64,000 bases of DNA from Escherichia coli (GTDB taxonomy: Bacteria; Pseudomonadota; Gammaproteobacteria; Enterobacterales; Enterobacteriaceae), in assembly GCF_965641715.1 (NCBI RefSeq), contig NZ_OZ282454.1. One strand, 5' to 3'. Position numbers and translations under genes: made by a program. Below the pieces are notes generated by a model. It made no database searches. It was not told the origin of the DNA and saw only the letters and a list, made by a program, of their open reading frames with translations. Numbering within the stretch: the first letter of the stretch is position 1; each line of letters opens with the position of its first letter. This document shows positions 53,297 to 63,951 of the stretch, one piece after another.

Positions 53297-53959
53297 CTAG
53301 GTTGTCCAGAGATCGTTCTGTTTATCCTCCCAACGGCGGGGAGTAATTATTTGTTCAGGCGTCACTGGCGTTTTATTTTCATCTTCATACCTGACCATCA
53401 ATGCAGCTCTGCCAAATAAATATTGTTCGTCACTGTTAAGATGTATCCCTTTCATTGTCTCCATATTTTCAGTGACTTTATCAAAGACACCGGGCACTTC
53501 ATACGCTCCCTCAATAACCTGCCCGACAATATCACCTTTATGTGGAACGCGGATTTCGCCAAAATTATTCCCGCACACCAGGCCATTTGTGTAGACAAAA
53601 CGAAAAATTCCTGGGATCATCTGATAACTGGATGAACCATCATGTGAATTAAGCAGGGTAATTTCAGGAACTTCTTTCCCGTTAATATGCCCTTCCCTGC
53701 GAAGACGTAACATATGTTTACTGTATTCGCGGCGTCCCAAATCACGAACCCGACTCTGACAGGCAAAGAACGGCTGGAAACCTTCATCACGTAACTTATT
53801 GATGATATTGATGGTTGGGATATATGTATAACGCTCACTCCGGGATTCATGTTTATCACCAGAAAAAACAGATGGAACAAACTGCATTAATTCGTCATCC
53901 GTTAACGGGCGCTCACGGCGAATAGAATTATATCGACCAAAACGGGAAGCTAATCGCAT
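53297..53959 (-). CDS. DUF932-like leading-region protein
   Basis: ...ERPLTDDELMQFVPSVFSGDKHESRSERYTYIPTINIINKLRDEGFQPFFACQS... assigned to DUF932 from memory. Confidence 0.55.
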   Translation of the reverse strand: MRLASRFGRYNSIRRERPLTDDELMQFVPSVFSGDKHESRSERYTYIPTINIINKLRDEGFQPFFACQSRVRDLGRREYSKHMLRLRREGHINGKEVPEITLLNSHDGSSSYQMIPGIFRFVYTNGLVCGNNFGEIRVPHKGDIVGQVIEGAYEVPGVFDKVTENMETMKGIHLNSDEQYLFGRAALMVRYEDENKTPVTPEQIITPRRWEDKQNDLWTT

Positions 53960-54069
53960 AACAGTAACTCCTTTATGAAGGCATAAAATTAATAAAAATT
54001 TTTTCGCTTAATATCATCCCCCCTCGGTTATCGTTAACAAAAAGACAACAATTCCGAGGGGAAGGACCA

Positions 54070-54366
54070 TCAAATCAGGTCAGTTCGGGACTGACCAACC
54101 TGCCGAGTGAAAAGCAGTAACAGCGCGATCAACTCATCAGCGTTTTTTCTGACAAGAGGAGTATGATTCTCCAGGCTATCCAGTAAGTCATGCAGCTCAT
54201 TATTGACCTGGTGGAGCACCTTAAAGAGTGCACCAGAATCCCGGCAGCTCTGATATGCAAGGTTTGCCTGAACTGCACGATTCTGCATAATCCCGATTTG
54301 TGCGATTGCGTCTTTCTGCTGATCGCCTGTTGGCTGATAAGTGGTGTTAAAAGAAAATGCGCTCAT
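54070..54366 (-). CDS. Hypothetical 98-aa leading-region protein
   Basis: First ORF downstream of repeat copy A, preceded by AGGAGG. Confidence 0.45.
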   Translation of the reverse strand: MSAFSFNTTYQPTGDQQKDAIAQIGIMQNRAVQANLAYQSCRDSGALFKVLHQVNNELHDLLDSLENHTPLVRKNADELIALLLLFTRQVGQSRTDLI

Positions 54367-54382
54367 AATTCCTCCTGTATCT

Positions 54383-54745
54383 GATGTTTTCAGCCCCCAT
54401 CATCTGTTGAGTTTCGGGACCCGCCGCAACGACGAAGAGCGCGTGCGCGAAACGGCGTTGCCCCTTACATCCCGGCGGCTTTTTGCCGGGATGCAAGGAG
54501 CGCAGGCCACGGCGCGACAGAGGCGGCGCGACCGGAACGGTCGCTGCAAGCCCGGGGTTTTCACGCATCGGACCGTAGCGACAGCCCGAAACCGCGCCAG
54601 CGGGTTCGGCGGAGACTGGCAGGTGCGCCAGCAGCTGCCTGTCGGAGTCGGGCCTGACGACCGGATGCCGCCAGGCAGCCGGGAGCCGAAGGTGCGCCCG
54701 GCAGACAGGACAACACTGCTGTAGTCAGAATCAGAGCAGGAAGAA
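54383..54745 (+). repeat. Leading-region structured repeat, copy A (shorter; lacks the central segment of copy B)
   Basis: Shares the first about 40 bp and the last about 320 bp with copy B at near identity. Confidence 0.6.
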
Positions 54746-55016
54746 AAAGAGAATAATCACGGGAAAGGTAATGTCATTTCTGACAACTGACCATAAACAG
54801 AGAAGGCGGGGGAAAAGAACGGGCGCCGCAGGCGCACGTTCATCCCCTTTCCCGAAGGGAAAGCGCCTTCCAGGCAGTCTGGTTGTTCATGCCCGTACAA
54901 TGCCAGCAAGGAGAAAGGGGCCACCGGCGAACCAGCAGCCCCTTTATAAAGGCGCTTCAGTGCAGTCAGACCAGCATCAGCCCTGAAAAGGCGGGCCTGC
55001 GCCCGCCTCCAGGTTG

Positions 55017-55178
55017 CTACTTACCGCCGGATTCGTAAGCCATGCTTGCCGTAACCTCCCTGTATCCGTCCTTCAGCCGTATTTCGCACAGACGATTCCG
55101 GGTCAGGAGTGTGAATATCAACAACGTGCAGCACACGATTAATACGCACCAGATAAGGGCGTTTCCCGGTAGTTTCAT
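55017..55178 (-). CDS. hok: Hok-family membrane toxin (type I TA; flmA/hok-like)
   Basis: Reverse complement reads [63 protein letters not shown]. Confidence 0.85.
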
Positions 55179-55236
55179 GGTTTACTCCTCCTTGCAATTT
55201 GCACGGTAAGAGGCCATACTGACGTGGACTAGACAT
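55021..55236 (-). CDS. mok: Mok-like overlapping reading frame (translational coupling frame for hok)
   Basis: 71-aa ORF overlapping hok in another frame, as in hok/mok/sok loci. Confidence 0.55.
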
Positions 55237-62576: not shown

Positions 62577-62627
62577 AAAATGTTCTCCTTCCGTCTGTTG
62601 CCGCCCCTCGCGGGGCGGCTCACCTCA

Positions 62628-62858
62628 TCAGTTAAAAGCGCGTTTCAGTTCGAGTGTGCGGAGCACCTGCCCGAAAGCCGTGTTTTTCATGGCGGGGATG
62701 TGTACACCACGCCCCCGGTGAAAACTCCGGGCTATGTGTCGCCCGAAGGCTTTCAGCACGGGGGCAATTTCCGGCGCGGGGATGTCTTCGCGTCTGAAAC
62801 GGGGATGACGGCGGGGCTTTACAGCCGCTGCGGAAGGTGAAACAATACTTAAAGTCAT
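62628..62858 (-). CDS. Hypothetical small basic protein
   Basis: 76-aa ORF, first gene downstream of repeat copy C. Confidence 0.35.
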   Translation of the reverse strand: MTLSIVSPSAAAVKPRRHPRFRREDIPAPEIAPVLKAFGRHIARSFHRGRGVHIPAMKNTAFGQVLRTLELKRAFN

Positions 62859-63094
62859 AATTTAGCCTCTTATGACGGTTGAATGGAGCCGCAAAAACTG
62901 TTCGTGCAGTCTCTGCGGCGTGGATTAAGCAGGTCCCTGACCTGCTTTTTTCATATCTGCATCTGACGTTCTCCGGTGTTTTCCTCCTTCTGTTCCTGCG
63001 TTTTCATTACCTGCCAGCCGGATGACTGGCAGAATACATAAATGCGTATTGCCGGAGCCTGAAATAAATCCTGATTTTTAAAGAACATCACCCG

Positions 63095-63545
63095 TTGAGT
63101 TTCGGGAGCCGCGGTTTTGACGTTTCGCGGGAACCTGCTGCTGTATTCCCTGTGGTATGAACTTCACCCGTTTGAGAACCTTCGCCGCAAGGGGCATCAC
63201 TGCCACGGCCTGACGCACCTGTCCGGGGCAGAACGCAAAATTTTTTACCGGGTTCTGGGTAAAAAATTTTGTGGGCTGTTCATTTACCCTGGACAGTCAG
63301 TGCGACAGGTTGTGGCTATATGAGCCCCCGGCGACAGGGACTCATACGGGTGTGTGGCACCCGGCAGGCAATGAGCAGGGACCCGCTGCAACGACGGAGA
63401 GCGCGTGCGCGAAACGGCGTTGCCCCTTACATCCCGGCGGCCTTTTGCCGGGATGCCAGGAGCGCAGGCCACGGTGCGACAGAGGCGGCGCGACCGTTCC
63501 GGTCGCTGCAAGCCGGGGGTTTTCGCGCGGGCTGACAGGCGGCCT
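63095..63545 (+). repeat. Leading-region structured repeat, copy C
   Basis: Related to copy B over the gttgagtttcgggagccgcggttttgacgtt...hairpin...ccggcggccttttgccgggatgccaggagcgcaggccacgg segments. Confidence 0.6.
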
Positions 63546-63562
63546 CCACCGCCTACCCTGTA

Positions 63563-63754
63563 TCACCTGTGTCTGCTGCCCTGAAGGATGTACTGACCAC
63601 CGAGGAAAACAGCCTGCTGATTCGCTACAAAATCGCAGATTTCATCAACAATCTGCGCGGTGGTGAGCGGTTTCTGTCCCATTTCACGACGCCGCGCATT
63701 AATCACGGCCCTGTAATTACGCAGAATTTCGCGGGTTTCCGTGCTGATATTCAT
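63563..63754 (-). CDS. Hypothetical 63-aa leading-region protein
   Basis: Small ORF co-oriented with the leading genes. Confidence 0.4.
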   Translation of the reverse strand: MNISTETREILRNYRAVINARRREMGQKPLTTAQIVDEICDFVANQQAVFLGGQYILQGSRHR

Positions 63755-63951
63755 TACCCGTTCTCCCCGTCCAGCGCCTGACGCATCACCCGCATAATCT
63801 CACGTTCTTCCCTGACAAATGCGTCACCGTCGCCCCCGTTCTCGCACCCGACAGCATGGAGGCGATAAATTTCACTACCAGCCATCACCATCACTTTTTC
63901 CAGCAGCACCGCAGGGACTGTTACAAGACGGTTTACGCGCTTTTCCTCCAT
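63754..63951 (-). CDS. Hypothetical 65-aa leading-region protein
   Basis: Small ORF overlapping the next gene by one base, suggesting coupling. Confidence 0.4.
   Translation of the reverse strand: MEEKRVNRLVTVPAVLLEKVMVMAGSEIYRLHAVGCENGGDGDAFVREEREIMRVMRQALDGENG

Follow-up and report, generated by a model that had tools for sequence, protein, structure and literature searches.

Introduction

Single-stranded DNA (ssDNA) promoters allow plasmids to express genes for SOS inhibition, anti-restriction and host reprogramming before the host reacts. Here we ask whether three related repeats in a 64,000-nucleotide stretch of Escherichia coli DNA (NCBI RefSeq assembly GCF_965641715.1, contig NZ_OZ282454.1; hereafter the window) are promoters of this kind. 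The repeats, called A, B and C, were picked out in an original prediction made from the sequence alone, which placed each directly upstream of a block of minus-strand genes, took the plus strand to be the strand that enters the recipient first, and proposed that the repeats act on it as Frpo-type ssDNA promoters. Our analysis indicates that the region is very probably the leading region of an F-like plasmid (IncFIA/FIB, MOBF), in which B and C are class 1 ssDNA promoters (Frpo/ssi) and A is a decayed copy.

The system is of an already known kind, and for B and C the original prediction correctly rediscovered a published model, whose record runs from in vitro work (1997) through IncI1 genetics (1999-2004) and F in vivo (2023) to thousands of elements (2024) and 5' rapid amplification of cDNA ends (5' RACE; 2025). 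As a review summarises the 1997 work, Frpo forms a stem-loop in which -35 and -10 boxes are displayed, and E. coli RNA polymerase transcribes it in vitro. In ColIb-P9, three homologous ssi repeats stand at the heads of leading-region operons. In F, deletion of Frpo1 or Frpo2 leaves ygeA, or ssb and yfjA, without early expression, which takes place before conversion to double-stranded DNA (dsDNA). Samuel et al. (2024) counted 13,089 homologues of Frpo, spread over 6,006 elements; Wen et al. (2025) set up classes 1-3 and located class 1 start sites by 5' RACE in pESBL; and a 2026 preprint named the F elements ssp1a, ssp1b, ssp2 and ssp3, and reported that ssp1 transcripts prime complementary-strand synthesis in vivo. 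Transcription that depends on ssDNA and ends after dsDNA conversion is known for the F and pESBL homologues only. In the present work the strand, homology, fold, covariation, deletion and nonsense codon were computed, and promoter activity is taken from the published F and ColIb-P9/pESBL studies.

Results

The plus strand is the transferred strand

The 11 kb that contain the repeats and their genes are 100% identical to the E. coli plasmid pRHB38-C15_2 (CP057088.1; IncFIA/IncFIB, MOBF, MPF_F), and the region is common, at 90-95% identity, to at least 5000 enterobacterial plasmid records. An exact and single match to GTGGGGTGT^GGTGCTTT, which we take to be the F nic sequence, lies on the plus strand at 52232-52248, with the nick after 52240. 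At the F oriT the nicked strand exits 5' end first, so the plus strand is the transferred (T) strand, running from 52241 towards 64000, just as had been proposed from a nic site placed near 52240. The genes of the blocks all lie on the minus strand, and the T strand is therefore their template; the sole nearby exception, the SLT/orf169 gene, is oriented relative to its neighbours as in F.

The repeats are modular copies of one element

Repeat finding and MAFFT alignment showed that the three repeats are real, that their coordinates are close to those first given, and that each sits directly upstream, in the minus sense, of the gene block assigned to it (Table 1). All three are modular. Between A and B, 289 nt (the right module and part of the core) are 98% identical, a core of ~151 nt is present in A, B and C at 85-93% identity, and B and C have in common the 5' flank plus about 300 nt at roughly 78%. 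The flank itself, the 22-nt CATCA[T/C]C[T/C]GTTGAGTTTCGGGA, is found in all three copies; the ~300-nt module is restricted to B (59803-60103) and C (63108-63408), and a right module of ~180 nt to A and B. The length and identity of these matches mean that the repeats are not a product of chance. They are richer in GC (62-66%) than the window as a whole (51%). An Rfam scan of positions 51000-64000 returned no family over the repeats; only the traJ 5' untranslated region (UTR)/FinP, sok and AS-pc01 scored above threshold.

The core (54420-54570, 60078-60228 and 63382-63532), which lies 3' of each Frpo hairpin site, holds two or three small hairpins (CATCCCGG...CCGGGATG; GCGC...GCGC; GCGACCGGAACGGTCGC) that are kept, with stems that covary by eye, in F, ColIb-P9, an insect-metagenome element and Salmonella Frpo* candidates, and that are kept even in A. 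Past the right modules the transferred strand carries purine-rich GAA/GAG/CAG tracts, at 60395-60475 in B and 54735-54760 in A; at the corresponding place the GAA/GAG run of F Frpo2 is longer, and such tracts yield artefactual poly-Leu/Phe open reading frames (ORFs) on the minus strand.

B and C carry the Frpo hairpin

As the reference for homology we used F ssiD, which is the Frpo of Masai & Arai 1997, with the sequence that Samuel et al. 2024 list in their Supplementary Table 2. It matched the plus strand of B at 95.1% identity over 59777-60122, and that of C at 78.5% over 63097-63429. Alignment with both F copies identified the B hairpin as the F Frpo1 type, and the upper stem and 3' arm of C matched F Frpo2 in 160 of 167 alignment columns. 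When folded as ssDNA, each formed one long imperfect hairpin, of -189.7 kcal/mol in B (z -9.4; outer pair 59803-60103) and -138.9 kcal/mol in C (z -8.4; outer pair 63108-63408). Long hairpins had been predicted for every repeat; they are present in B and C, but not in A, where the whole hairpin has been deleted. B and C thus combine homology, a position on the transferred strand and a long stem-loop backed by covariation (see below), three of the features by which a class 1 ssDNA promoter is recognised.

The public record lists a minus-strand coding sequence for a 68-aa 'single-stranded DNA-binding protein' at 59773-59979, wholly within the 5' arm of the Frpo-B hairpin, which is almost certainly a spurious annotation.

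Covariation supports the stem-loop and suggests the position of promoter boxes

Ten class 1 elements were aligned: B, C, F Frpo1 and Frpo2, ColIb-P9 ssi1-3, a Serratia copy and two insect-metagenome copies. In the RNAalifold consensus 96.1% of cells are standard pairs, as against 38-45% when the partners are slid by 1-3 columns; the 96.1% is inflated, since one alignment served both to derive the consensus structure and to count the pairs. Compensatory changes were found in 11 pairs, and the observed covariation was reached in none of 500 shuffles. Six of the eight pairs of the helix TGTCCGGG/CCCTGGAC (the putative -35 helix) show no variation at all; the adjacent helix towards the base (the spacer) has compensatory changes in 7 of its 11 pairs; and the 6-7 columns past this spacer helix (the putative -10 region) are unpaired in all ten sequences.

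From this pattern we infer, provisionally, a -35-like box that is read by sequence, a 17-18-bp spacer that is constrained in structure only, and a -10 that is held open as a mismatch bubble, with the A/T tract beside the loop occupying what would be the position of an UP element. The exact boxes and the start site are likewise proposals: a sigma-70 consensus scan at a threshold of 9/12 gave no site within the hairpins, so conservation and structure were used to place the boxes. In Samuel et al. 2024 the working Frpo-acrIIA4 construct, which lacks the core, begins 16 nt beyond the proposed -10 bubble, a boundary consistent with this placement. On the plus strand of the window the box CCCTGGAC occurs in B and C only.

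The plus strand folds better than its complement, by 7-21 kcal/mol, in all ten elements, and G:T pairs are commoner on it in nine of the ten (F Frpo2 is tied, with 6 and 6), which together favour a structure of the T strand over one in minus-sense RNA. This bears on an explanation in which the structures act in RNA, as the 5' UTR or terminator of minus-sense transcripts, or in which the repeats are recombination scars or a small mobile repeat without regulatory role. It is true that a complementary transcript contains any such hairpin as well, and that the repeats recombine, as seen in the F Frpo2 mosaic of B- and C-type sequence described below and in reports of module gain and loss. Nevertheless, the weaker fold of the complementary strand and the distribution of G:T pairs run counter to such a role, the invariant box within a covarying stem points to protein recognition of DNA, and the published genetics of F argue against action at the RNA level. 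We consider this explanation highly improbable.

The hairpins might instead serve mainly as priming sites or replication barriers for the complementary strand (the ssi function), with the operons expressed from ordinary dsDNA promoters. It was as a single-strand initiation site that ssiD was first isolated, Frpo RNA is reported to prime DNA synthesis in vitro, and early conversion downstream of ssp1a and ssp1b depends on transcription in vivo. A priming role is, however, compatible with promoter function; moreover, expression precedes double-strand conversion and lasts longer in uvrD mutants, and our scan found no good minus-strand sigma-70 site upstream of ssb or of the 76-aa ORF behind C. 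Priming as the main function therefore seems to us unlikely.

Repeat A has lost its hairpin

In A, the junction GGGA|CCCGCC at 54419/54420 joins GAGTTTCGGGA directly to CCCGCCGCAACG. At this point F Frpo1, B and C have about 274 nt, the whole hairpin, with GGGA on either side, which is the signature of hairpin excision by slippage between short direct repeats. The ssiD match in A is limited to 54416-54467 (the last 53 nt of ssiD, outside the hairpin), the box CCCTGGAC was not found in A, and the sigma-70 scan gave no -35/-10-like pair on its plus strand. Lacking the hairpin, A does not have what defines a class 1 ssDNA promoter. The proposal of Frpo-type promoters at all three repeats consequently holds for B and C, on the strength of homology, strand and hairpin anatomy, and fails for A.

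Judging by the plasmid sequences in PLSDB, hairpin-less copies are natural and recurrent, and a minority state. A copy of this kind is also found at the ygeA position in pSF-173-1 and pB7A_66; NZ_CP035868.1 has a hairpin-less copy too, and in NZ_CP010123.1 (L003, IncF) the hairpin-less junction, at 1601-1671, lies directly upstream of ssb. The ssb-psiB operon of the latter plasmid may be without an ssDNA promoter. A rule by which loss of the hairpin at A goes with decay of ygeB was considered and rejected: pSF-173-1 and pB7A_66 are hairpin-less yet have an intact DUF932 gene, and in one plasmid the hairpin-less copy precedes ssb.

A could still be an ssDNA promoter of another build, in which the small hairpins of the core and right module recruit RNA polymerase or a primosome, so that the plasmid would have three working elements. 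The core hairpins retained in all three copies and in the relatives named above would fit such a role, as would the intact genes that follow hairpin-less copies in other plasmids and the fact that A as ssDNA folds better than shuffles (z -4.0). Set against this, the plus strand of A has neither a -35/-10-like pair nor the invariant box, published activity all maps to the long hairpin, the working Frpo-acrIIA4 construct is without the core, and ygeB behind A is already a pseudogene. We regard a working promoter at A as improbable, and favour a decayed copy.

Several points weigh against the overall reading of two promoters and one remnant. The percentage of paired cells is inflated, as stated above; the putative -10 hexamers of B (TGTCTT) and C (TATATG) match TATAAT poorly; and plasmids exist with this hairpin-less copy upstream of intact ygeA and ygeB, so the region may be expressed otherwise and A may not be simply dead.

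A model for expression from the incoming strand

With B and C as class 1 ssDNA promoters and A as a decayed copy, events in the recipient very probably proceed as follows. In conjugation the plus strand would be nicked after 52240 and enter 5' end first, which means that the genes of each block would arrive ahead of their promoter. On the incoming strand B and C would each fold into a ~300-nt imperfect hairpin, whose 3' arm would act as the non-template strand of a sigma-70 promoter, with the A/T tract, a paired -35-like box, a 17-18-bp helix and an open -10 bubble. Host RNA polymerase would then transcribe down the stem and along the plus strand towards oriT, expressing ssb, yfjA (DUF905), yfjB/herB, psiB and psiA from B, and the 76-aa ORF, the DUF3560 protein and the methyltransferase from C. 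Complementary-strand synthesis would abolish the hairpin and switch the promoters off, and the transcripts could also prime that synthesis. At A, excision of the hairpin between GGGA direct repeats would have left no class 1 ssDNA promoter in front of ygeA and the ygeB pseudogene.

Relation to the elements of F and ColIb-P9

The elements resemble F Frpo1 (ssiD; ssp1a) and Frpo2 (ssp1b) in sequence family, strand, hairpin architecture and position. Like Frpo2, B stands upstream of ssb-yfjA-yfjB-psiB-psiA, and C and Frpo2 are nearly identical in the upper hairpin. In contrast to F, a third copy (C) is present here, before a 76-aa/DUF3560/methyltransferase block: F is without this unit of repeat and genes, and has Frpo2 and ssb immediately after the 63-aa ORF. 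A, which occupies the Frpo1 position, is hairpin-less here, and the hairpin types are swapped, the F Frpo1 type standing before ssb. The ssi1-3 elements of ColIb-P9/pESBL (IncI1 class 1) are likewise three dispersed repeats that head operons, and have in common with B and C the box TGTCCGGGG...CCCTGGAC, an A/T tract at the loop, a mismatch bubble and small hairpins 3' of the main stem. Those of ColIb-P9 differ in that identity is only ~78%, over the central 110 nt, in a different and shorter lower stem, and in gene content (ardA etc.). ssDNA promoters of class 2 and class 3 (ssp2 before klcA/ardB, ssp3 before an M.EcoGIX homologue) are not similar in sequence to either B or C, and lie beyond the end of the window.

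F Frpo2 is itself a mosaic, with a B-type lower 5' arm (109/110 columns), a C-type upper stem and 3' arm (160/167) and B-type sequence beyond. Such a mosaic would fit an exchange between C-type and B-type copies, by recombination or gene conversion, that removes or adds the intervening operon, and repeat-mediated gain and loss of leading-region modules has been reported for IncI1-type repeats. What this locus may add to the known system is, in the first place, Frpo copies as cassettes that recombine, taking up and shedding operon modules, and that can shed even the hairpin; in the second, a ygeA/ygeB block, important in F transfer, that appears to be decaying; and in the third, a link between DUF3560 and a methyltransferase, which offers a testable function for a large unannotated leading-region family. 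Only three leads go beyond what is published: the copy without a hairpin, the link of DUF3560 with a methyltransferase, and an antisense RNA at the head of the C operon.

The C operon may encode a split methyltransferase

Behind C, the 187-aa protein matches M.TaqI (1e-6) over the catalytic domain only, and also the type II methyltransferase and mad2 models of PADLOC and Pfam MTS. S-adenosylmethionine (SAM) motif I is followed by motif IV, (N/D)PP(F/Y), the M.TaqI-like order; a target-recognition domain was not found, the match spanning the catalytic domain alone. For the DUF3560 protein encoded ahead of it, the structure model had a predicted local distance difference test (pLDDT) score of 91, with long helical hairpins and small beta domains, and structure comparison yielded no informative fold relative. 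Most DUF3560 relatives at 40-55% identity are 600-800 aa long. In fused relatives the N-terminal ~450 aa correspond to the DUF3560 protein. The two relatives checked have a C-terminal methyltransferase at 39-47% identity to the 187-aa ORF, and among the 47 aligned sequences (the query plus 46 relatives) the methyltransferase domain was detected in 25 at E <= 0.001 and in 37 at E <= 0.1. Near-identical fused DUF3560-methyltransferase versions exist as well. Fusion in most relatives suggests that the 453-aa and 187-aa proteins are one split enzyme; on this comparative evidence they probably act together, with the DUF3560 part plausibly supplying DNA binding.

For a possible role in early protective methylation the comparison is with M.EcoGIX/M.BceJIII, methyltransferases of leading regions that are specific for single strands. 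Both these and the 187-aa enzyme are orphans that modify adenine, are encoded on the transferred strand after an ssDNA promoter, and could plausibly give pre-emptive protection from restriction. The 187-aa enzyme differs from these in several respects: it is unrelated in sequence to the M.EcoGIX homologue of F, has NPPF rather than DPPY and the M.TaqI motif order, is without a recognition domain, and comes together with a DUF3560 protein, either as a pair or as a fusion.

The head of the C operon is also overlapped by the gene for the antisense small RNA (sRNA) AS-pc01 (Rfam RF02875, 107 bits against a gathering score of 79), which covers the ribosome-binding site and start of the 76-aa ORF. 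Promoter and terminator scans placed a sigma-70-like site at 62818-62846 and a terminator at 62927-62947. As its template is the minus strand, AS-pc01 would be made only after complementary-strand synthesis, and it could be a second off-switch for the Frpo-C operon. Tentatively, then, and with rather more doubt than confidence, we propose that the DUF3560 and 187-aa proteins are two halves of an enzyme (a ~670-aa fusion in most relatives) that is made from the incoming strand, methylates the plasmid early and blunts restriction, after which AS-pc01 shuts the operon off; they would represent a second, uncharacterised leading-region methyltransferase family, apart from M.EcoGIX.

Genes of the leading region

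Alignment of the DNA with F revealed that ygeB, encoding a DUF932 protein, carries the nonsense change W221*. Its frame stays open beyond this codon to about 53138, as in F; the PHROG profile matched only to position 225 of 281, and the PLSDB gene table, which omits pseudogenes, has no ygeB coding sequence. The ygeA/ygeB block thus appears to be decaying in this plasmid. In F, loss of Frpo1 cuts transfer about four-fold, and YgeA has been studied there. YgeA and the 63-aa ORF had no match in NCBIfam, PHROGs or PADLOC and weak ones only in Pfam (i-Evalue 0.016 and 0.037).

The 652-aa gene product had been called a ParB-like nuclease. The match is to the ParB N-terminal domain (TIGR00180), and the protein is of the YfjB/HerB ParB-like, cytidine triphosphate (CTP)-binding type rather than a nuclease. 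The position of the gene between yfjA and psiB, and its span of 1959 nt, are those of the annotated ParB-family gene of F, which identify it as a probable yfjB; YfjB has recently been characterised as HerB, a CTP-binding, host-reprogramming protein, and by analogy the product here may bind CTP too. For the 76-aa ORF, the name YdaB is given to a homologue by one source; its structure model has two helices and no significant fold match, and the hint of an HU domain from Pfam stays unconfirmed.

What was first listed as one ORF at 63563-63951 is really the 63-aa ORF together with the 3' part of the DUF1380 gene, both belonging to the next operon upstream. As to the expectation that the unnamed ORFs conceal undescribed functions, they are indeed uncharacterised and none is a housekeeping gene, but their families have already been catalogued (YgeA, DUF905/YfjA for the ORF at 58923-59183, HerB/YfjB, YdaB-like, DUF3560 and DUF1380). 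In Samuel et al. 2024, DUF905, DUF1380 and DUF3560/YdbA rank with the largest families of the leading region, and the largest of all is headed by the name YdaB.

Table 1. Features of the oriT-proximal and leading region, in order of position in the window.
Feature	Position	Strand	Details
traJ	50659-51429	-	ORF list
traM	51535-51918	-	ORF list
oriT nic consensus	52232-52248	+	exact, single occurrence
SLT/orf169 gene	52332-52841	+	orientation as in F
ygeB / DUF932 (ORF273) pseudogene	53297-53959	-	W221*, TGG to TAG at 53297-53299
ygeA homologue, 98 aa	54070-54366	-	intact; position as in F; narrow enterobacterial plasmid family
Repeat A, hairpin-less Frpo1 remnant	54398-54750	+	flank 54398-54419; core 54420-54570; right module to 54750
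hok/sok (flm) type I toxin-antitoxin locus	55017-55346	-	Rfam sok, 98 bits; Hok ORF
psiA	55696-56415	-	annotation, ORFs
psiB	56412-56846	-	annotation, ORFs
YfjB/HerB-type ParB-like protein, 652 aa	56901-58859	-	TIGR00180, 59.4 bits against cut-off 58.45, residues 40-212
DUF905/YfjA homologue	58923-59157	-	annotation; phrog_8779
ssb (plasmid)	59214-59747	-	NCBIfam NF010292, 365.7 bits; annotation
Repeat B, Frpo copy before ssb	59781-60408	+	flank 59781-59802; hairpin 59803-60103; core ~60078-60228; right module to 60408
Frpo-B hairpin	59803-60103	+	A/T tract 59957-59966; proposed -35-like TGGACT 59988-59993; proposed unpaired -10 bubble TGTCTTT 60012-60018
SAM-dependent adenine methyltransferase, catalytic domain, 187 aa	60604-61167	-	motif I EPSAGTG; motif IV NPPF
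DUF3560 protein, 453 aa	61215-62576	-	Pfam PF12083
YdaB-like ORF, 76 aa	62628-62858	-	229 homologues of constant length; Pfam PF14908, E = 5e-4 (weak HU-domain-1 signal)
AS-pc01 antisense sRNA gene	62853-62950	+	Rfam RF02875
Repeat C, Frpo copy before 76-aa ORF/DUF3560/methyltransferase	63086-63545	+	flank 63086-63107; hairpin 63108-63408; core ~63382-63532; without right module
Frpo-C hairpin	63108-63408	+	loop GTTC near 63251; A/T tract 63261-63270; 8-nt bulge TTCATTTA at ~63279-63286
Frpo-C boxes (proposed)	63290-63295; 63317-63323	+	-35-like TGGACA; -10 bubble TATATGA
63-aa ORF	63563-63754	-	distal gene of next operon upstream, not of repeat C's
DUF1380 gene	63754-64173	-	cut by window end, 3' two-thirds inside; next operon upstream, not repeat C's

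Further features near oriT

Beside oriT, Rfam detected the traJ 5' UTR and the FinP antisense RNA at 51342-51453 (124 and 99 bits), an F-type fertility-inhibition locus. A homologue of F ssiE, another single-strand initiation site of that plasmid, lies on the plus strand at 52836-53024 (91.6% over 190 nt), between the SLT gene and the ygeB terminator. Finally, a perfect, spacer-free palindrome of 28+28 nt at 53086-53141, nearly identical in F, directly follows the ygeB frame; from its sequence it looks like a bidirectional terminator for the convergent ygeB and SLT genes, and it would form a strong hairpin in the entering strand too.

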